64,000 bases of DNA, taken from positions 20,646,001-20,710,000 of the forward strand of contig OZ024748.1 of assembly GCA_964016885.1 (NCBI GenBank). Direction: 5' to 3'. Below the pieces are notes generated by a model that was given only the letters and a program-made list of their open reading frames with translations, searched no databases and was not told the DNA's origin. Shown here in pieces: positions 9,587-64,000 of the stretch (its first letter is position 1; every line of letters begins with the position of its first letter). The stretch comes from Eledone cirrhosa (taxonomy: Eukaryota). The position numbers and the translations under genes were made by a program.

Positions 9587-10901
9587 TGTAGTGACAAGCG
9601 AGTTACTTTCCTTGTATCGGCACTATCTTAAATATAGGAGAAGCCCTAGACATGGAGGAGGACGAACTGGCCAGCCTGTTCGGTAGGACATTCAGCCCGG
9701 GACCTATGGACAACTTCCAGAAGTCCCTGGCCTGGCAGTGCTACCGAGGAGCTTTACCCGTTCGAGAAAGGCTCTACAGACATGGGCGCCCGGGTAGGGA
9801 CCCCGCCAAAAAGATCTGTCCCAGATGCGTGTGCGACGAGGAAACCGTTGCACACGCATTGGTACACTGCTCAGGCGTAGCCGATCTGTGGGGCTATGTC
9901 GAACAACTGCTGTCAAGGGTGGGACCGATCCGGTTGACCACCGAGTCTATTGTAATGATCAAGTCGCCTCCCCCCTTCAAAGATGAAGCAGAGGCGGTGT
10001 TTCTGTGCGTAATAGCCATGGCGAAAGAGGTTGTATGGTGGACGCGTCTGAAAGGACTGAGGTCAGGCACCTTTCTCTCTGGCCAACAACTGGTCCGTTT
10101 CTTCCGATATCATTTCGGAAGAAATGATCAGGATGGAGAGAGAGGTGCTGCACCCCAGTCGTTTTTATGAAAGGTGGGTGAAAGTGGCGAGAATGGCCCG
10201 TGTGAATGGGCCTTCTCTTTACATAAGCCTGTAGGTGGAAAAGAGGAAGGAACGAGGGAGCACCCCCTCTGTGCTCCTGAGGAAAAGGGTTGCACAGGAT
10301 TTTGTTATAAATTTTATTTTTTGTTATATTTTATAACAAAATCCTCTATTGAGGATTTTGTTATAATTCTATTTTTTGTTATATTTTATTTTATTTTTAT
10401 ATATTGTTATTGCCTCCTCCCTATTGAGGACGCCTTGTTTTGTAAACTCCCATGGTACTTGTCCCACTTTTGATGCCCTTGTGGCAAATAAAAGAAACAT
10501 ATCTTAAATATAGGAGAGGCTATTGAGTGAGAAGGGTAACTGATCTCTCTCTTCCATGCTGGCTACAATGGAAAGCGGACGTACAAATATTCTCCGATTA
10601 TGACGGCCCGACTTGGCGGGTGTACTCTATGGAATAGCTTCGTTTGGAACCAAAGACTTTGCAACGCCTCGTCTCCTGCATACACACATCCTTTCATTTA
10701 GCTCTGTCCATAAAATAATAATTAAGCCATTTCTGTTAATCCGCAAGGTATGTAGGGATTGAATTAACGTTTGTATAGAGTTTATTAAATGTATCATTTA
10801 ATAAAGGATTGTTTATTTCGACTTAAAGCCCTTCTGAAGTTATTTTACATAAGCAAGACGATATGTTGTCCGTTCATTGACAATATATCGTTTTCACTTT
10901 A
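9587..10901 (+). mobile_element. Solo LTR inserted in the piggyBac transposase
   Basis: TGTAGTGA...TCACTTTA termini, (A)TGGG duplicated on both sides; removing it restores the transposase frame. Confidence 0.8.
9642..10499 (+). mobile_element. Tx1/L1-clade LINE, 5'-truncated 3' end
   Basis: ORF2 C-terminal zinc-knuckle region (LPVRERLYRHG..CPRC..ETVAHALVHC), T-rich 3' UTR, AATAAA; 17-18-bp TSD TATCTTAAATATAGGAGA (9624-9641, 10500-10517). Confidence 0.92.
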
Positions 10902-17522: not shown

Positions 17523-20500
17523 CAGTGGTCGCCAACATTGGTTCCGTAAAACAAACTCCGGGTTCCTTAAAAAAAATATTTACATTACCATTAATATTTT
17601 GGGTTTTCTGAATACGGTGCAAAGAAAATGCCAAAGGTGCAATGTATAAATGAACAAGTACTATTGTAGTGTACACAGGTTCTCCACTCCAATTCGTGGA
17701 AAACACTTTCAGTTTCTCACTTGAATTAGCAGAAAAACACTTCCGAGATTCGTGGATATTGAATACTTTCAATTTCACATCAATTCTTGGAAAGAGTTTT
17801 CTGAATTCTGAGAATTTGACTACTGATAATACACTAATTGAACTTAGAAATTGACCAATCACGAACAAGTAAATGTTGGTCGATGACAGCATAACTTTAA
17901 ACTGAAAACTTCAGTTCAGCGAGGTCTCTCAGCCAAGAGGCAGGGTCAGTTCGCTGTTCTCACAACGTAGTTCAATAGAGAACACGTTTTAATCTACTAC
18001 CCTCACAAAAGCTTTAAAGTCGTCTAAAGTTTCCTCACTGAGTGAACTCGCTTACTAGTCGTTTTCAACATGCATCCAGTTCCACAGACAATTCTAAATA
18101 AGAACACGTTACATTCTGTTGTACTTTGCACAGAAAATATAACGCCTGTAAAGTTTTGACTACTAACAAAGGTAATTTTGTATTCCATGCATACACTATA
18201 AACTTTGCCACACAATTATGTATTCATTTGATGAAATATATTTACATTACCAATAATATTTAATACGACCCTAAAGTAGTATATGCAGGAAGTGCTGGAC
18301 TCTGAAAATATTTCTTCTAGTTCATAAATTTGCACCTTTTTCAGTAACTCAATATTTTAATATTATTATAAGACTTTAAATAATATGTTTGCCATCCTAA
18401 AATGGAGAAATTTCAATTTTTTAAATTTCAATTTTTTTTTAACTAGTTAAGTTTTTCCAAATATCTCAATTTAAAGTTAATTTAAGTACTTTTTGTAATT
18501 AAAAAACTTAATTTCTCTTGTTTATTAATGTCATATTAAAAATGTTAACTGTAGATAGACTTGACGTCTATTATTAAGAAGCTGGAGTTAGATACCGGCA
18601 GTAAGGTTAGACAGTGGTGTGATGATTATGTTAGATATGGATTTCAAAAAGCTGACACTAAAAAGGATACACCAGATCAGCCCATGTGTTTGCTATGTTC
18701 AAAAGTTCTAACAAATAGCTGTTTAAATCCTGAAAAACTTAAAAGACACATTGATACTAATCACACCAATGATAAAAACAAGTCACTGGAATACTTTACT
18801 TTGCTGAAAAACATCAAAAAATCACAAGCTAATATGTATGACTTGTTTTGTAAAAAGTCGGATAGAAATAAAGCTTTAACAAGAACATCTTTTGAGATTT
18901 CACATTTGATTGGTAAAAACAAGAAACCATTTACATTAGGAGAACAGTTAATTCTGCCAAGTATAAAAATTGCTACAGAGAATCTTTTTGAAAGCTGCAG
19001 TATTAAGGACAAAGAAAAATTAAGCCAGTTACCATTGTCAGCAAATACCGTAAAAAAAGGGATAATTGATATTTCTTCCGATATAGAAAATCAGATACTA
19101 ACTGCACTAAAGAAATGCCCATATTTTGGACTGCAAGTGGACGAAACAAGGCTCAATTTGCTCTGTACGGTTTGTAGACCTTGATAAAAAAAGAATTAGT
19201 AGAAGAGTATTTGTTTTGTCTGGCATTAGATATCAACTAACGGTCAAGATATATTCAATAAAATTGAAGAGTATTTTTTTTTTAAATGGTGTATCTTGGA
19301 GCAAGTTTACTTCAATAACAGATGGAACAGCTGCAATGACTAGTAAAAATTCTGGTTTGATTGCAAAAATTAAAGAACAGACCCCAAATTGTATTTCAAA
19401 TCATTGTATGATTCATCGAGAGGTTGTGTTAAAAAAATTCAAAGACAGATGCTCAAATATTAAATGACCAGCTGAAAGACATTGTCAAAATTATCAACTT
19501 GATCCATGCAAGAGCAAAAAATTCTAGAATGTTTGAATCTATTTGTGAATCTTCTGGAAGTAATTATAATAGATTGTTATTGAACAATCATGTGCGTTGG
19601 CTGTCTTTTGGGGATGCTATGAAGAGAGTTTTTGAACTGAGAGAACAAAGTTTTTCTAAAAAAACAGAATGATGAAAGAGCAAGTGTATTAGAAACCAAT
19701 GAATGGAATGTGCAACTCGCTTATTTAGTAGACATTTTTGGTGAACTGAACAAACTAAATAAGTGTCTTCAGGGTAACAATGCAGATATTTTTTACTTCA
19801 ATCAATTTTATTACATATTTTCAATCAAAATTAAACATCTTTATAAAAAGAATTGAATCGGACAATTACTTTCAAACCTTGAAATAGAGCTTAAAAAGAA
19901 AATTTTGACTCCAGCAATCTAAAGAAGATTATTCTTTCTCATTTAAACATGCTTTCCACAGGTTTTTCAGATTATTTTGATGGAAAGAGATATTGTTAGC
20001 GGAAATTTATGGATAAAAAACCCATTCACCAAGATTGAGCAGTTAGTCAGAAAATGACGCTGGAAATTGTAAAAATTTACTACCTGCCAATGCTTACATC
20101 AGTTGATGGATTTGAATTCAAACAAAGACCTGAAAGTGATATTCGAAAGCAGAAAGAAAGAACTATGGATCGACTTATTCTTGATTGGGGAGTAATGAAA
20201 TCAGCCAACTTGCATTGAAGTATTTGACTTTATTCCCATCTAGCTATTTGTGCGAAAAAGGGTTTTCGCAGTTGGTGGAAATCTGCACAAAGAAGAGGAA
20301 TAAACTGTCAGCAATTGACGAGTGTATGAGACTGGCATTAACTAGTGTTGAACCTCGATTTTCTAAACTCACTGACGAGGCGCAGCAGCAGTAAAGCCAT
20401 TGTGTTCGATTACATACACACGCATGAAACACTAAAATAAATAAATACTTTATTATTTTTTTTGAAAAGTTTTGTATTGTATAGGTTCCGTGAAGAATTC

Positions 20501-23062: not shown

Positions 23063-23790
23063 GGCCCTTTTTAGTCGTGGGTTCACATATATTGACCTGT
23101 ATCGATCGTTTCTCTCGGTGGTCTGAAGCCATACCCCGGGTGGACATAACAGCTGAGTCCGTTGCCCGAGCTTTCATTTCCAATTGGATTGCTCACTTTG
23201 GTGTTCCTTCTAAAATAACCACGGATCGAGGACGCTAGTTCTAGGCTTCCTTATTTCGTGAAATATCACAACTCTTGGGTGCTCATCACATTCATACAAC
23301 CAGCTATCACCCAGCCTCCAATAGAATGGTGGAGAGGTTTCACAGAGTTGAAAGCTGCACTCCGCGCTACTCTGATCTGCAACGTTGGACCGAATTTTTG
23401 CCAATCATGCTTCTTGATTGTTCTGCCGTTAAGACAGATTTGGGTTTCTCATCAGCTGAACTTCTTTACGGTACCACCTTGAATCTTCCCGGTCAAATAC
23501 TAGCACTGGTTGATTTGTCGCATCTTGATCCAACATCATATGTCACCAGGATTCATTCTTACTTCTCGGATCTTCCACCAATGAACCCTCATGACCAGTC
23601 TATTTCCTCTGCTGTTCCATCAGATATCTACGTGGACACATTTTTATACAGAATGATTCCATCAAGGGACTGCTTACGTCACCCTATAATGGACATTTTC
23701 GTGTGCTTTCACACACCAAAACATTTCACAGTGGCTGTCAATGGTCGAAAAGAGAATATCGATTGACAGAGCAAAGAGGGCTTTCTCTGA
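23063..23790 (+). pseudogene. Gypsy-type integrase (rve core and GPY/F region), degenerate
   Basis: [64 protein letters not shown]. Confidence 0.9.
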
Positions 23791-26569: not shown

Positions 26570-27048
26570 AAATGAATGTCACTAGGAAAGACATCCACCA
26601 AGTCATGAAATATTGCTTCAAAAAGGAATCTGATGAATATGGTTATAAATGTGTGAGGGGAATAGTGCAAATCTGGTTAAACAATGGAACAGTTCAGACT
26701 TCAGTAGCACATACTAATGACCACAAAAGGAAAGTGTCTAGCCATTTTAACCAAAAAAAAAAAAAAATAAAAATAAAAAATCCTATATACAAACAATTAT
26801 AAAATGCTATTCCAGCCATGTGCATCCAGTTGAGCCAAATTTTAATTTAATAAACTTCTACCATCAGGTATATTTAATATAAATAATAATTATATCTTTA
26901 AATATAACATTAATAATGTTATTCCAACTAGTTAACTAAGAGAAATCTTGCTAAGAAATGAAATTGAACTTAGAGCAGCTAGGTTACCTTGTAAACTGAC
27001 CAGTGAATCAGCCAAAACAGTGAAATTACCAGTCTATCTTATCAAGCT

Positions 27049-28435
27049 TATGTAATCTTGTGTGGAACACGGGTGAAGTCCCAGAAGATTGGAGAAACGG
27101 AGCGGTTGTCTGTATCCCCAAGAAGGGCAACCTTGCCGATTGTGACAACTGGAGGGGAGTGACACTTCTCTCCATACCAGGGAAGGTCTATTGTCTGATG
27201 ATCCTGAACCGCATACGTGGCATGGTAGACCGGGAACTGCGAGAACAACAGGCAGGGTTCCGACCAAAACGTTCCTGTGCAGAGCAGATCTTTACGTTAC
27301 GCCGCATCATTGAGAGGTATAACAAATTCCAGAGGCCCCTCGCCGTCAGCTTCATCGATTTCTCCAAAGCATTCTATAGCATTCATCGACCGTCACTCTG
27401 GAGCATCATGCATGAGTATGGTGTGCCCCAGAAAGTCATTTCGGCAATCAAACAGATTTACACAAACTCCAAGTGCTGCATACAGACAGAGGATGGTTAC
27501 AGTTACTGGTTTGAGGTGGTTACTGGTGTGCGTCAAGGTTGCTCGCTTTCTCCAATTCTCTTTGCCATAGCCATTGACTGGGTACTAAGAAGAGCATCTA
27601 AAGACCAGGGTATATCTTGGGTGGGAGAGCGAAAGTTGTCTGACCTGGACTTTGCGGACGATATTGCTGCACTTACAGAGCACAGCTGACCTGCAAATCG
27701 TTATGAACAATATCAATGTCGAAGCAGGAAGCTTAGGTCCCAATATCAGTGCTAAGAAGACCAAAAGCATGTTATCTGGGACACACCCATCACCAACTAG
27801 TGTTTTCATTGAACAGGGGGAGGTGGAGATAGTGGACAACTTCACCTACCTAGGAAGCTCCATTGACAATGGGGGCGCCATGAACAGTGAATTGAAATGT
27901 AGAATGGGAAAGGCTTCAGCAGCATTTAACCAGCTTTTCAAGATCTGGAAGAGCAGGAAGTTCACCCTCAAAACAAAGATGAGATTCTACAACAGCAATG
28001 TGCTGTCCACACTCTTGTACGGAAGTGAAACATGGCACCTTAAGACCAGCCAAGAGAGGAAGTTGGATGCATTCGATTCCAGGTGTCTGCGAAAGATCCT
28101 GGGGATTAAATGGAGTGACCATGTAACAAACCAGGAAGTCAAGAACTGCACCAACCAGCAGCTAGTCTCTTCTGCCATCTGCAAGCGATGCCTGGGCTGA
28201 TTGGGCACGCTTTGAGACTTCCCCCGGAGAGACTGGCGAACCAAGTACTTAAATGGAACCCACAGGGAAGCAGACGGAGAGGGCGACCCAAAATGAACTG
28301 GTGCCAGACAGTTGAGAGGGACCTGCGAGCGACAAACAGACAATGGCGGGACGCTGTGCAACTGGCTGCTGACCGAACGCGGTGGAACACTATGATTGCC
28401 TCATGCGTCGCAATACGCGGGAGCTTCTGAGAGAG
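27049..28435 (+). mobile_element. RTE-clade LINE, 5'-truncated, young
   Basis: PKKGNLADCDNWRGVTLLS, QAGFRPKRSC, FIDFSKAF, GVRQGCSLSP, LDFADD, RRRGRPK; GA-rich tail; 12-bp TSD TCTTATCAAGCT (27037-27048, 28436-28447). Confidence 0.95.
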
Positions 28436-45688: not shown

Positions 45689-46972
45689 CCTCATATAGCC
45701 ATATATCACTTGACTGGGGTACACACCACCACCAATAGCCACATTATGTTCAAATATTGTACTGAGATATCCTCTGCATGATTCTTTCCAGAAGTAAAGA
45801 GCTAAGTCGAGGTATACTTGTATTGAGTACACACCAATAACACATCTACATAATTCCACATTTGTTTTCGAGCTCAGACATCGGATTATACATTGAAGAA
45901 CTGAACTTAATGAGAAACTAATTGAGGGTTTAAGCCTATATAACTACTCGTGCTTTTAGTAATTTAGGCATCCCGTTATGACCGAAATAAGTTTTACGAT
46001 TGTCGATCGTTTCATTAATCTCTTCATAGAAGTTATTTCTTTAATTGCTGTATCACGTGATGGGCGAGTTCTCTCCCTTAAGCCGAATGGAGCGTTGAAC
46101 TCGATAGATTTTACAAACTGGAGATCGGGTACCCAAAGATAGAAAGTTAAGAGGAAAGTCTTTACCCAGCTATGGCATAACAGTGGTTTGGTTAATTTAA
46201 TAGCACCAGACTAGAAATTAAAGATACAGCAAAAAACAACTTTCAAAATATCGATTTCTATAATAGGTTCAAAGCCCAAAATCTGGGTAAGAAAGTAAAT
46301 TATATCGGCATACATTTCTTTCCGTATCTGATTTATACACCAATAGCTACATATCCACGCTGTACTAGAGTACACAACACCAATAGCCACATGCCCAAAT
46401 ACTGTACGAAAATAGCTCATTCTATGTATATAATTCCTTCCGGCAGTAAAGACGCAAGTCGAGGTATAACTATTGAGTATATACCAACAACACTACACCG
46501 TATGCATCATTACCACATGTTAAAGGCAACATCTACCGATCTATTCAGTAGTGTAGCTCTGTGACAAAATGTCCACAATAGAAGAACAGTTAATAGTAAA
46601 GTATCAGTGATTTCGTGGCCCGTGTACTCAATAGAATGTTGAGAATGTAATGGTGGCGAGGCTAGAGTATTCAGCATTGTTTTATATATAAATATGAATG
46701 TAATAGATATAGAAGCAGTTGTAATAAAAAAAATTTCATAAGCTGTAAATCTGTCTTCCTTTCTTTCCTGATGAAGGACTTAAGTCTGAAACCTCCACTT
46801 CAACCAAGCGTGAACCCAATACACTCGTGGAAAATTGCCTCCTGCGTTTTGTTGGTTATTTTCAACTATATATATATAATATATATAATACATACAGAGT
46901 TGAAAACCAAATTAAAAGCTGTTTATAGAGAGAAAGGGCCGTTAATATAAAAGATACTGTATGTCACACACA

Positions 46973-47497
46973 CCCCAGGAGCGGAAGGCCCTCAACAACC
47001 AGGACTGAGATCAACGTTCAGCACGTCAGGCAGATGGTGCGTAACGATTGTCGGCTGACTGTTCGACTGATGGCAAATGAGCTGGGCATGAATCGGGACA
47101 GCGTCTGGAAGATTCTCACTGAAGATTTGGACATGCCGAAAGTTTGCGCGAAGATGGTTCCAAAACTGCTGAACGATGACCAGAAGAGTCGACGTATGCA
47201 AGTGTGCCAGGACAACCTCGAGCCTCTTGAAACCAAAACAGACTTGCTTGGGACAGTCATCACTGGTGATGAGTCATGGATCTTCGAGTACGACCCGGAG
47301 GGGACCCGTTTTGAAGACGTGGACGACATCAAAAAGGCCGTGACGACGGAACTGCGGAGGACCCCGGAAGAATCATTCCAAGCGTGGCAGAAAAGGATGG
47401 AAAAGTGCATTACACTCCAGGGGGATTACTTTGGAGAAAACTGAAGTTTGGGTTTGAAATAAATCTTTTGTGACATCAGTCCTGGAACTTTTCTGAC
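46973..47497 (+). mobile_element. Second, truncated copy of the 278-1184 mariner derivative
   Basis: High similarity, including the same deletion junction GAGTACGACCCGGAGGGGACCCGTTTTGAAG. Confidence 0.93.
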
Positions 47498-49209: not shown

Positions 49210-49735
49210 ACCACAGCACCGCAGTATGTTCCGAATCAAGAGCATGCTCAGTCTTTATTTCGACATCCGCGGTATTGTGCACCGAGCATTCTTCCACCAG
49301 AACCAGACCATCAATCGAGAGTTATACTGCTACGTTTTGAGGCGTTCGAGGGAGGGGGTTCGGCAAAAGTGACCGGATCTGTGAAGCGCGAACAATTGGA
49401 TTCATCACGATACACCCTGCTCGCCGAGCTCCCATCACTCGTGAGTTTCTCGGCAAGATCAACATCGTATCGCTTCCAAACGCGCCGTATTCGCCAGATT
49501 TAGCGCCTACAGACTTCCATCTCTTCAAGCTGAAAATGTAGCAGAGACCCAGAGCGAATCACAGCTCAACTCGCTTATGGAAAACGACTTCCAGGCTGGA
49601 TTTCAAAAGTGGCAGTAACGCTTTGAAGGTGCATTGCTGCGCAATGCGACTTGCTAAAAGGAACGTCAAAATCTATGTAAACAGTTTTTTTTAAACTAAA
49701 ACGGGTCCGGGAATTTTTAAATATCGCATAGTATG
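49210..49735 (+). mobile_element. Degenerate mariner transposase fragment
   Basis: FDIRGIVH, QTINRELYC, HHD, PYSPDLAPTDFHLF. Confidence 0.8.
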
Positions 49736-50790
49736 TTCCAAATTGATAGTTCCTTAGTTAAGTAATAACATGTTATATCACATTGGCAAGTTACCAAACT
49801 AGTACTGCCATAAGAATAATCAGCATATTAATATAACTCGTCTCAGCAGAATTTACAGAATGTACGGCGGCCGAGTACCCAAACATTTTATACGGAGAGT
49901 TGGGTAAAGGAAAGCAACTCGTAAACATACAATATGTCAGCTAAAGAAACGATGGAAAGCTGTAACACCCTAACCATCATCCTCGAAGCCGGCAGTGCGG
50001 TAAGGTCTCTTCAAGTTAGGAAAGACTTGCCCAACAGTCAGAGGAAAAACGGTGAAAGAGGAAGTTCCAACGTCTGATAAACGAGAATCAGACTTCGTCT
50101 GTAGTGGGTCTAGGTGAGGCTGCCATTCTCGTATAGGACCGTCAAGCTACACCCGATGCTGCACCATAAACAGCACCCAGTGTACAACTCCATAGTTTCC
50201 CCGAGACTGATAGATACCTAAGGAAACAGGAATATATCAGTTTCATTAAACCACTTGCAAGGAAAAAGAATTGAATCTGAAAAAAAAACAGTGAAAACAA
50301 CCTTTCGCGCTTTCATTGCCTCTCGCCCTCCGGGCTTCTTTGCTGCCAGCAAAAATAAGTTACCGTTAAGATGACAAAAGTGTTAATAGTTTAGGCTCAT
50401 ATTTGTTTAATTGCACTGTCTCTTTCAATTCGAAATCGGAAATTGTGAGAATACCGATTTCATAGCGAGCCACGTAAACAAAACCTAAACTTCCTTCACT
50501 TAATTAGCAAAGAATACATTACGTGCTCAGAAAGTGTAGTGAAGATTTTAGTTAGAGAATTACAAAATACTGTAGTTATAGTAAAATAAATGATCTAACT
50601 TCAGAAGACTAGCACAAGGAGAAAACGAATTAGAGTACACATTTGAGTCATCGATATAGAGTACACATTTGAGTCATCGATAACCTTTACTACTAATAGA
50701 ATAAGTAAGTGAGGGGGAACCTCTACATGGTCGCTCGACCTGTTAGAAATAGCATCTGCATCCTCTAAAAAAAGGGGGATGAAGGGGACA

Positions 50791-50994
50791 GTGTCTTGGC
50801 CAGACTTACAATTAAACTCTATCTGGAATGTATCGAATAATATTACGCCCCCTCGGCGTGGGAAGACAGCCTAAGTCCGTGGTACGAGCGGCAGCTTCGT
50901 CGTTTTTGTTTTTTTTCTCAGTGGCGATTGGTGTCTTGGCAGGTTCAACCATTCTCGGGTAGTCGACCATATAAGGACGAACTAAGGCGTAATA
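50791..50994 (+). ncRNA. Candidate HDV-like ribozyme fold at the 5' end of an R2-type element
   Basis: P2 TATTACGCC(50841-49)/GGCGTAATA(50986-94); P3 CCC/GGG around L3 TCGGCGT; P4 GTCC/GGAC; J4/2 CTAA; possible P1 GTGTCTT(50791-97)/AAGACAG(50863-69). Confidence 0.6.
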
Positions 50995-52250
50995 ATGAAT
51001 GAATAATAAATCCATACGGCAGCTGGGGGCCGAAAAACCAGCGACTAAAGATGGGATGGGCCTTTCTAGCCTGCCGCAGCGTGCTGTAATGGCCCTCTGG
51101 CGCAAATGGCAATCATCTCCCACGGCTGACATCGAGTCGGGTCATGACCCTCGTAAGAATACCGACTCGCTGGATATGGATCAACGGAAGATAGTTACCG
51201 ACAATAACAGTTCGTGTGTTCCGGATAAGTTCACTCTGGATTACAGTACGCATGTCTTGGTGTTGAGAGGCAAACAGCTTCCCTCACAGTGGGCGCGAGA
51301 CCCCGTGGACTGTCGGCTAGGTCGGATTGCCCGTTGCTGGAGAGGATTGCCTCGTAAAAGCGTCATGTTTTGCTCACTGTCCACGTCACTTCTCTGCCCT
51401 GTCTGGTTGGGCGGAACATTTGCTACATCGGCATGGGCGAAAACCGATTTTCAGACGTTTCAAATGTGGTAGGGAGAGTGGTCACCTTCATTCACCACTC
51501 TGGCCGATGTACAGACAGGAGATGGGATGACAATTCTGCCGACTCGGGCCTGGGCCATAAATGTGGGGAATGCGACCGTGCTTTTCGTATGATCGCCGGA
51601 AGATCTCAGCACGAGAGAGACCAGCATCCCGCGGTTACCAATCGCCGCAGAATTGCGAAACACGCTGAAGAGATCGAACGAAAGCGTGCGACTCGTACTG
51701 CAATCCCTCGCATTCGTGTTCGTAGGGGCTGCTGGTCCGAGGAAGGGGTGGCGATCCTTGAAAAAGAGGGATAGCTCTTAGCGGGATACCGTCGCGTCAA
51801 CGTAGGTATCGCTCCGTTCCTGCCTGGAAAGACCGTTAAGCAGATTATTCAGATCGCTCTTTGAACTAAAGAGAGGTGCAATAAACGGTCCTCTACCCGT
51901 GCGATCGCCTGACCAGATGGGTGGAACGATCACCACGGCAGCCCTCGATTCTGATGGGAGGAACTCGTTTAGTGATGTGGTGGAACCGGGTCGCTTCGAT
52001 GAGCCGCTGCCTTTGCCGAGTGTCACCACATTGTGATGAGATCACGGACGAGGGATGGGGGTGCGTTCGGAGTTTCGATGGATAGTTGGAGAACATGCGT
52101 TCGCGTAGGAGGCGCGCTAAGCCCGCGAAAAAGAGTGGACGTAAGAGGCCCTACAAGAAATCTGGTAGAAATAGTGTAAAGAGCGCTTTACGCTCACTAC
52201 CAGTATTTACACGACAGAGATCGGGCAGTCTATACGGTGTCACAGCCCAG
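50841..52250 (+). mobile_element. R2-clade non-LTR retrotransposon, 5' part only (zinc fingers and Myb)
   Basis: CSL/CPRHF..WAEHLLHRH, a degenerate CCHC-like finger, CGECDRAF..GRSQHERDQHP, Myb-like WSEEGVAIL..VNVGIAPFLPGKTVKQI; no RT downstream. Confidence 0.8.
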
Positions 52251-52689
52251 TCAATAAGATCGGGCTTCGGTAGAATTTGAACTCAACACTGCAAGCTAAT
52301 GAAACATTGTTACAGCAACATTATATATAATGCCCCCCCCCCACTCTCAAGCCTGAAATTAATAACATTTGTACTGCCTCTTCGCTTCCACATTTGTTTT
52401 GTCTCAACTATAAAAAATATATATATATGTATATATATGCACATATATACACGTGCGATGAGTCGATCTAAAACACTAATTGTAACACTAACTAACCCTA
52501 ATTTTAGATCAACTTTTTACATCTACCTTCACCTAAACGGACACTTAAAACGTTTACCGTTTCAAACAAGTTTTATCTCATTGTATTTGGTTACATTCTA
52601 GTTTCCCCCTTGTCCATTCCTATAGATTACGCTTACCTTGCCCTAAACCGCACGCATTACGGAAAACTACACAAATACTGTACAATGAT

Positions 52690-62374: not shown

Positions 62375-64000
62375 CAATTTAGATCAGTCGAAAGCCTTCG
62401 ATAGGGTCGACCATCGTTACCTAGCGGCAGTCCTGAGGGCGGCTGGCTTTGGGCCCGTCTTCAGAGGCTGGATCGCTGCCATGCACAGCGACATCTGCTC
62501 TGTGGTGAGAGTGAACGGTCACTTTTCGGAACCGTTCAACATCATGCGCTCGGTCCTCCAAGGATGTCCCCTCTCGTCCCTATTGTACGTATTGACTCTC
62601 GAGCCATTACTGCACAAACTGGAGGGGTCCCGCGCGAACTAGGATGCGGAAGATCCGTGTCAGCATATGCCGACGATGTCACCGTAGTGATGTCGAACGC
62701 CAAACACATCGAGGCGATCGGCACTACACTAAGAGAATACGAAGCGGTGACAGGAGCAATGATCAACCAGGAAAAGTCAGTGGGCCTGCAGCTCGGCACC
62801 TGGAGAGGCAGGTCCATGCCGTCCAACAGCGTCGTAGGGCGCTGGACGGACGGACCGGTTAAATTGCTAGGGGTCTGGTTCGGTCCAGACCTCCAGACGG
62901 ACAAAAACTGGGACGAGGTGACGAGCAGGGTGGCTTCTCTCACCCAGAAATGGGCCGAGAGGAAGCTATCCCTGAAAGGTCGAGCGGAGGTGGCTAACGC
63001 GTACATCGCGTCCGTCATCTACTACCGCCTGACCGTCGTACCTTGTCCTAAGCCCCGCCTGACTGCGCTGGAGCGTTTGCTCTTTCGCTTCTTGTGGAAG
63101 GGACGCTCTCCGATGGTCAGGCGGTCCATCTGCTGTCAACACCCGCTACGTGGAGGGCTGGGCATGCCGTGGCTGATGATGCGCAGACACGCGCTCAGGC
63201 TACGACATCTCCACCTCTTCCTCGACGGTGATCAGGTGTGGTCGCCGTTTGCTAGACACGTTTTTCCCCAGCTCGTCTCCTTGACGGAGCTGCAGTCCTG
63301 GGTCAAGCGAAGACCGAGAGGGAGCGCTTGGAGGCTGGAATGTCTTCAGGCGCTCACAGCCCTCGACCAATCGGGCAATGTGATCGGTGGAAACTCCACC
63401 TTGGCGTTCTATAGGGGATTAGTGGAGGGGAAGAGCGACGACGTACTTGGAGAAACTCTAGGCGTCGACGAAAATCAACTAGCCAATCTCTTCGGAAGGA
63501 CTTTCGGGCCGGGGCCTATGGACAACTTCCAGAAATCCCTGGCCTGGCAGTGCTACCGGGGTGCTTTGCCAGTTCGGGATAAACTTTACAGGCATGGAGG
63601 TGCCGTCAGCCGGGCATGTCCGAGATGCGCACAGGGCGACGAAACCGTCCTGCACGCACTCGTCCAGTGTCCGAGCATTGCTGACTTGTGGGTTTATGTC
63701 GAACACCTGCTGTCACGTGTAGGACGGATCCAGCTATCAGCTGAGTCCATCGTGAGGATTGCCCCGCCCTCTTCCTTTAGCCGGGAAGGGCAGGCAGTTT
63801 TTATCTGTCTGGTGGCCACGGCGAAAGAGATAGTATGGTGGACACGTTTGAAAGGGCTGAAGACGAGCACTTACCTCTTCGGTGATGCCCTGATTAACTT
63901 TTTCAAATTTCATTTGAAAAGGAAAATCAGGGTAGAGAGGGAAGTGCTCTCTTCCCAGCATTTTGTTGAAAGATGGGTGAGAGAAGCAAGTATGGCCCGA
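62372..64000 (+). mobile_element. Tx1/L1-clade LINE ORF2 (RT to zinc knuckle), 5'-truncated, runs off the window
   Basis: LDQSKAFDRVDH, QGCPLS, SAYADDV, LSLKGRA, GGLGMP, LPVRDKLYRHG..CPRC..ETVLHALVQC; related to 9642-10499. Confidence 0.95.

Follow-up and report, generated by a model that had tools for sequence, protein, structure and literature searches.

R2 retrotransposons are transcribed along with the rRNA unit and integrate by target-primed reverse transcription by their own protein. The P1.1 pair of the canonical HDV ribozyme is C-G. According to the searched text of the papers cited here, most R2 ribozymes take the 5′ strand of P1 from the upstream 28S sequence (Eickbush et al. 2013, PMC3774820), the usual length of P1 is 6–7 bp (PMC4908430), and a 5′ purine is required after an HDV-like cut (PMC11331408). 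The octopus elements R2-1_ECi, R2-1_OVu, R2-1_OSi and R2-1_ORu are catalogued as 28S elements (PMC13188248 Table S2). R1/R2 insertion outside 28S has been noted in Bombyx (PMC10257491), and the oyster element R2-1_CGi was first named as non-specific and was renamed after a 28S-flanked copy had been found (PMC5035012). Nonautonomous R2 SIDEs are known from Drosophila (PMC3414825).

The window analyzed here, a stretch of 64,000 nucleotides from Eledone cirrhosa, contains what is probably, on sequence comparison, the degraded first 1.4 kb, from the 5′ end, of a lineage-A R2 with 28S-sited relatives. It likely stems from an old insertion off target, and its ribozyme is predicted to be dead. The features are as follows.

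50791..50797, forward strand: taken as the P1 5′ strand in a preliminary description; flank, outside the element
50838..52224, forward strand: probable 5′ portion of an R2 retrotransposon of lineage A, ending short of the reverse transcriptase (RT)
50838..50840, forward strand: TAA, possibly the last remnant of a 28S-derived 5′ leader
50841..50849, forward strand: P2 5′ strand, starting at the first family-specific base; 9 of 9 pairs with 50986–50994; covaries among subfamilies
50850..50862, forward strand: P3 (CCC/GGG) and L3 UCGGCGU, with C at L3 position 2 (family U)
50863..50869, forward strand: P1 3′ strand (P1′) AAGACAG; family AAGAGAG, the complement of 28S CUCUCUU
50870..50871, forward strand: P1.1 3′ strand CC (family CU), C being the predicted partner of G at L3 position 3
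50875..50978, forward strand: long P4/L4 domain that has lost 11 nt after 50889
50982..50985, forward strand: J4/2 CUAA, with C50982 the predicted catalytic C
50986..50994, forward strand: P2 3′ strand
50995..52224, forward strand: pseudogenized N-terminus of the R2 ORF, with ATGs at 50995 and 50999
51366..51434, forward strand: zinc finger 3 remnant
51453..51510, forward strand: zinc finger 2 (CCHC type) remnant, frameshifted and without its first Cys
51562..51627, forward strand: zinc finger 1 (CCHH), intact (Pfam zf-C2H2, E = 0.031, under the cut-off)
51733..51846, forward strand: Myb domain remnant with a stop inside, matching via copy L041 the post-finger region of PDB 9nl2

Unlike the 28S-flanked, full-length copy L041, to which it is 69% identical over element positions 8–1514, the window copy is dispersed, truncated and frameshifted. 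Its nearest copy shows 77.5% identity, and sibling copies in the same genome, full-length R2s among them, are about 68–82% identical to it. The finger and Myb remnants are scattered across frames and stops, and no finger is intact in the frameshifted ORF that starts at ATG 50999. By tblastn the window matches the L041 ORF at residues 11–371 of 995 (E = 2.6e-67), with the alignment stopping at 52224. The element has no RT or endonuclease after 52224, Pfam gave no significant match for eight ORFs in or near the element, and a homolog search returned three RT proteins at 30–32% identity. Many BLAST matches also stop at 52224; a nonautonomous 1.4-kb family ending there was considered and rejected, since the siblings run on into the RT. 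The stop is a break private to the window copy.

Among the indels of the window copy, 18 of 26 break the frame in comparison with C1a, itself decayed, and 24 of 27 in comparison with L041. Differences fixed between subfamilies are chiefly synonymous (synonymous:nonsynonymous 140:56, 39:13 and 65:26), whereas the window-private substitutions comprise 15 synonymous and 22 nonsynonymous changes. The parent evolved under selection, and the decay of the window copy came after its insertion.

The genome of the window (G000, 3.0 Gb) was searched with 50780–51300 as the query, and 34 matches from the best 30 scored candidates were obtained, 69–83% identical when the window itself is excluded; none begins before 50840. 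L041 is a 3.8-kb element between 28S sequence ending GACTCTCTT on the 5′ side and TAGCCAAATGCC on the 3′ side; both junctions are canonical, and Rfam places LSU rRNA on each side. Its ORF matches solved R2 proteins at E-values of 1.6e-114 to 5.9e-111 (8gh6, 9e-64; L1, 1e-20) and carries in one frame the Myb domain and three fingers, CCHH, CCHC and CCHH, aligned to 9nl2. The sibling ORF is alignable from the fingers through the RT with PDB 9nl2, 9dou and 9nl3, three-finger proteins that are closer to it than 8gh6; the clade and species of these four entries, beyond their printed names, are our presumption. An R2-type RT is present in siblings, and a CCHC knuckle with a PD-D restriction-like endonuclease in C18a, C11, C1a, C6b and C11b; the window copy ends ahead of the RT and lacks both. 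By the finger architecture of the siblings, the family is probably a lineage-A R2.

The preliminary description, made from the letters of the window, had read a cephalopod R2 of lineage-A architecture with zinc fingers and Myb downstream of the ribozyme. This reading holds: three fingers and Myb are seen, though their frames are split by stops, and the remnants align to the L041 ORF, whose best matches are R2 proteins. L041 itself agrees by eye with R2-1_ECi (curled octopus) at all cells shown, namely in the first ~400 aa, both 28S flanks and the first ~400 nt as printed in PMC13188248. At L041:5855, ~630 nt are missing compared with siblings, including the knuckle and endonuclease region; this copy matching R2-1_ECi is probably defective.

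The further suggestion of a non-rDNA R2 lineage finds no support. The canonical 28S site (AAGG/TAGC) is the family's target, the window copy itself lying outside 28S; the family's P1′ complements 28S, PMC13188248 Table S2 already lists the family among the 28S R2s, and the dispersed copies are not one clade. An exact 20-nt core pattern located 29 heads among the matches listed, against one in the control. Inspection of insertion sites, as had been proposed, found 28S within 1.5 kb upstream in 20 of these 29, so that the family as a whole does not qualify as a non-site-specific R2 (R2NS). At the junction itself, 18 of the heads directly follow 28S, one follows 28S across a short rearranged piece, five follow other R2 sequence, and five, the window included, follow unrelated DNA. 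A 3′-end profile run over the fetched regions gave 25 matches, none within the window; after three truncated ones were excluded, 22 complete ends remained among the matches listed, of which eight abut 28S, five continue with TAGCCA(A) and then other sequence, five abut another R2 head, and four meet unrelated DNA. Three of the last four lie at TA or CA microsatellites (L051 on C5, L100 on C7 and L157 on C23). These head and end counts describe the best candidates listed and are not copy numbers. There is only one uninserted 33-nt target in the assembly, thus the main rDNA arrays are probably under-assembled. That the window copy lacks a P1, an RT and a 28S site is due to its being only a fragment.

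DNA trees of 25 and 28 rows are ladder-like. End branches measure ~0.01–0.02 in the young group, 0.03–0.05 in mid-age copies, 0.11 for the window copy, and 0.09–0.19 for the window copy with most of its neighbors. Dispersed and 28S copies are interleaved (five changes), the AU test rejects a tree that groups all 18 dispersed rows in a single clade (P = 6.5e-39), and the young dispersed copies C5 and C18b are nested among 28S copies. The share of dispersed copies, 18 of 28 tree rows, is high for an R2. The old stratum (the window copy, C2a, C28, C1d, C2c, C386 and others) could instead be a relaxed-specificity offshoot that spread beyond rDNA, carrying within it the P1 strand taken from 28S. 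When C11b is left out, a clade of nine old dispersed copies lacking a 28S flank is not rejected (AU P = 0.39), fixed differences, most of them synonymous, set the old stratum apart (the 39:13 above), and R2NS-1_SMed and R2NS-1_CSi are known to have lost specificity (PMC5035012, text searched). A quick protein tree rooted with a second R2 lineage puts the root near the young copies and the old stratum as derived; diagnostic-site root counts are 14:8, 18:16, 6:6 and 8:7. However, C11b (L145), the one member of the old clade whose complete 3′ end can be read, is on 28S: a family-type 3′ end is followed by decayed 28S (72% over 211 nt). C11b sits with the window in a starred 12-row old clade, the two having no aligned column in common. 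Moreover, the longest end branches fall in the old group, pointing to age rather than a derived burst, copies number only tens among those found, and young 28S subfamilies shed dispersed copies too. An offshoot comprising this stratum is accordingly judged unlikely, and relaxed specificity outside rDNA for the early branch that includes the window, taken more broadly, only slightly less so. Two other 3′ ends were considered. The 28S junction of C3b comes after a 3′ end that differs from the family's and may belong to a second insert, and the 3′ UTR by C386 was rejected as the end of the old subfamily, being 93% identical to mid-age copies.

For the favored reading, an off-target insertion from a 28S-sited family, the following sequence of events is proposed. 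The parent would have been transcribed together with the rRNA unit, and its RNA would have adopted an HDV-like fold with the P1 5′ strand supplied by 28S CUCUCUU; the pairing is seen in the sequence and the cleavage is presumed. RNA thus freed would carry a short 28S leader and would be inserted through target-primed reverse transcription by a ZF3-Myb-RT-RLE protein, the domains of which are seen in siblings, occasionally outside rDNA, as is seen for young copies too. Dispersed copies would escape rDNA turnover and then decay, which could explain why the oldest copies are mostly dispersed. Loss of the 3′ part of the window copy, and of nearly all its leader, would have come afterwards.

The edges of the element bear on this proposal. 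Other dispersed old heads have TCTCTTAA or CTCTCTCTTAA in the place of TAA at 50838–50840, and the 28S leader is kept at CTCTT up to CTCTCTCTT in other dispersed heads, compared with TAA at most in the window. The window's own 3′ junction is gone, and the insertion site is unreadable. Common short repeats lie on both sides of the element (50710–50755 and 52322–52450), and an R2 3′ UTR fragment stands alone at L098:8204–8437, ~52 kb upstream of the element and just beyond the window. A normal 28S insertion followed by DNA-level rearrangement, which moved the copy or stripped its rDNA flanks, would fit with the missing 3′ part, with rDNA pieces spread over many contigs and in places rearranged, and with several relatives that are inverted or interrupted. 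On the other hand, a trace of 28S is absent on both sides, as first reported (Rfam gave no match, and local-alignment scores are at the control level); the 5′ break is ≤3 nt from the point where the family joins 28S, which is the position expected for a 5′ end templated by RNA, and other dispersed heads end at the same few bases. Rearrangement is therefore regarded as improbable, well behind old off-target insertion.

The ribozyme core of the window copy is as first described: the 9-bp P2, P3 with L3 UCGGCGU, P4 and C50982-UAA are all in place, the CUAA/P2 block ends 4 nt ahead of ATG 50999, and the long P4 and atypical P1.1 are borne out. The outer stem of P4 is formed by 50875–50882 with 50967–50978. 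A search descriptor that requires a P2 of 9 bp matches a single site in the window, compared with 0.067 on average in 30 shuffles; when P2 is reduced to 6 bp the shuffles yield 1.3, thus the signal rests on the long P2. Rfam returned no HDV-family match at E ≤ 5 on window 45–60 kb, and neither ribozyme nor rRNA at the locus in a whole-window run at the gathering score. Single-strand folding gave no support (z = +1.91), as expected of a pseudoknot. The P1 5′ strand placed at 50791–50797 falls outside the family homology, which begins at 50840; an equally good partner occurs in 26% of random 60-nt window stretches, and no genome match spans 50774–50850 except the window itself. The imperfection of P1 and P1.1 reflects private decay together with the wrong choice of P1 partner.

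Three core changes are private to the window copy, at L3 position 2 (U in 35 of 36 parsed heads), at P1′ position 5 (C in the window only) and at the second P1.1 base, and the family's P1 5′ strand has been lost. A 6–7 bp P1 with P1.1 is found in 28S-flanked siblings and not in the window copy. The lost P1 strand, the three private changes, the 11-nt P4 deletion and the frameshifts together predict a dead copy with an inactive ribozyme, in line with the suspicion voiced at the outset. Continued activity through a new P1 with 50791–50797, kept by the host, is highly implausible: P2, P3 and the catalytic C have been preserved and G at strand position 3 fits the private C of AAGACAG, but the cleavage-site pair would be a G-G mismatch, the P1 match is at chance level, L3, the P1.1 strand and P4 are altered, and divergence is similar to that of the dead ORF.

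The family ribozyme was characterized from 36 parsed heads, of which seven were found by hand and 29 through the pattern, in which several positions are fixed. P1′ is AAGAGAG in 31 of 36, the dinucleotide after it is CU in 34 of 36, and the J4/2 C is present in 36 of 36, the parser having demanded it. In 28S-flanked copies the complement CUCUCUU is 28S sequence, 3–4 nt ahead of P2; by this complementarity, the family's P1 5′ strand is 28S CUCUCUU. Covariation across genomic copies, suggested earlier as a check, is found in P2 and P4. In 16 aligned heads, 86.5% of cells are paired, compared with 82.3% in shuffles (0/500), and double-sided changes number 22 against 8.9, a test inflated by kinship. 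Four of seven P2 pairs covary, and the long P4 stem has 34 consensus pairs, nine of them changed on both sides; the number of covarying pairs by itself is not above shuffles (72/500). The HDV-like nested order of P2, P3/L3, P4 and the J4/2 C is thus accompanied by covariation, with relatedness inflating the shuffle comparison.

In the 7-bp P1 register, G at L3 position 3 is predicted to pair with the C after P1′ (G-C in 14 of 16 aligned rows), giving an inverted P1.1, and the cut may fall at 28S −11, ahead of C, whereas PMC11331408 gives a purine as required there. Alternatively, the cut may fall at −13, ahead of G, with G-U at the cut and a 9-bp P1 containing an A-C mismatch. The C conserved in three Octopus heads and in both R2 lineages here favors −11, an additional A or GA found upstream in two or three dispersed heads favors −13, and the 5′ junction lengths favor neither register. 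For an octopus R2 ribozyme with inverted P1.1 that cuts before cytidine at −11, we put the chances at about even. Its combination with an early branch, the window included, that spread outside rDNA with the 7-nt 28S strand is quite unlikely, more so than such spreading taken singly. An L4 motif, GGCAGGUU..ACCAU.CUCGG (window 50930–50965), is common to both R2 lineages, the SIDEs and all heads, and is also seen by eye in Octopus R2 heads; it is perhaps bound by protein.

Other R2-derived sequences were encountered in the genome. A young nonautonomous R2 SIDE family of 1.16–1.38 kb consists of a ribozyme head with a longer L4 plus the 3′ UTR, and showed no match to the R2 ORF. Its loci (L061, L063, L064, L066, L069–L071, L073, L074, L077–L079 and L085–L087) are 81–100% identical to each other; 28S lies upstream of 14 of 15, L069 is inside a full 18S-5.8S-28S unit, and L074 is inside a CA microsatellite. 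The second R2 lineage (L044:8582–10000 onward on G000 C18, and L034 on G000 C7) has ~47% amino acid identity to the L041 ORF and the same AAGAGAG-CU ribozyme core, and its head starts TAGCCAA-like, so that later inserts may be able to use the 28S site again. Head-to-tail R2/SIDE arrays occur at G000:C18:15044000–15077000, G000:C3:332078000–332095000 and G000:C7:29285000–29297000, joined via TAGCCA(A) or with the 3′ end directly to a head.

Elsewhere in the window, 49341–49700 and 46929–47441 hold what we take to be Mariner-like transposase remnants, Pfam giving no match on 49341–49538. Transposon ORF remnants also lie at 27024–28197 (with an RT, Pfam RVT_1, at 27033–27686), 62405–64000, 9595–10167, 18555–19181 and 23245–23763. 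The window end is an open RT-like frame of 532 aa, and by eye the other remnants resemble the C-terminal parts of LINEs, a DNA transposase and an integrase.

Taken by itself, the window copy is unremarkable, a dead piece of a 28S R2 family that has already been catalogued. Dispersed fossils of this kind preserve successive R2 subfamilies, which would be erased by rDNA turnover, together with natural ribozyme covariation. The predicted inverted P1.1 and the possible pyrimidine at the cut may be of interest for R2 gene-insertion engineering, as may the off-target and head-to-tail insertions that a lineage-A R2 has left here. The 1.2-kb family would carry R2 SIDEs beyond Drosophila. Our literature search, with most subscription journals outside its scope, found no description of a cephalopod R2 ribozyme or SIDE and no report of a mollusc R2 SIDE, and octopus R2 ribozymes, dispersed copies and SIDEs are not discussed in the searched text of PMC13188248.

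As far as the printed sequences extend, R2-1_ECi, R2-1_OVu, R2-1_OSi and R2-1_ORu have one common L3-AAGAGAGCUU head, and their finger and Myb peptides are homologous to those of the window family. Like the R2 ribozymes in the searched text of PMC3774820, the octopus ribozyme has a 28S-supplied P1 of 6–7 bp, a variable P4, a conserved U/G in L3 and a conserved catalytic C; unlike them, its L3 is UUG(A/G)CGU, so that P1.1 is predicted to be G-C, not C-G. R2-type copies outside rDNA are also described in the searched text of PMC5035012 for R2NS-1_SMed, R2NS-1_CSi and oyster R2-1_CGi. The R2NS families have young nonspecific copies (>98% to consensus), whereas young octopus copies are mostly in 28S. 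The history of oyster R2-1_CGi presents the same situation as that of the octopus family.
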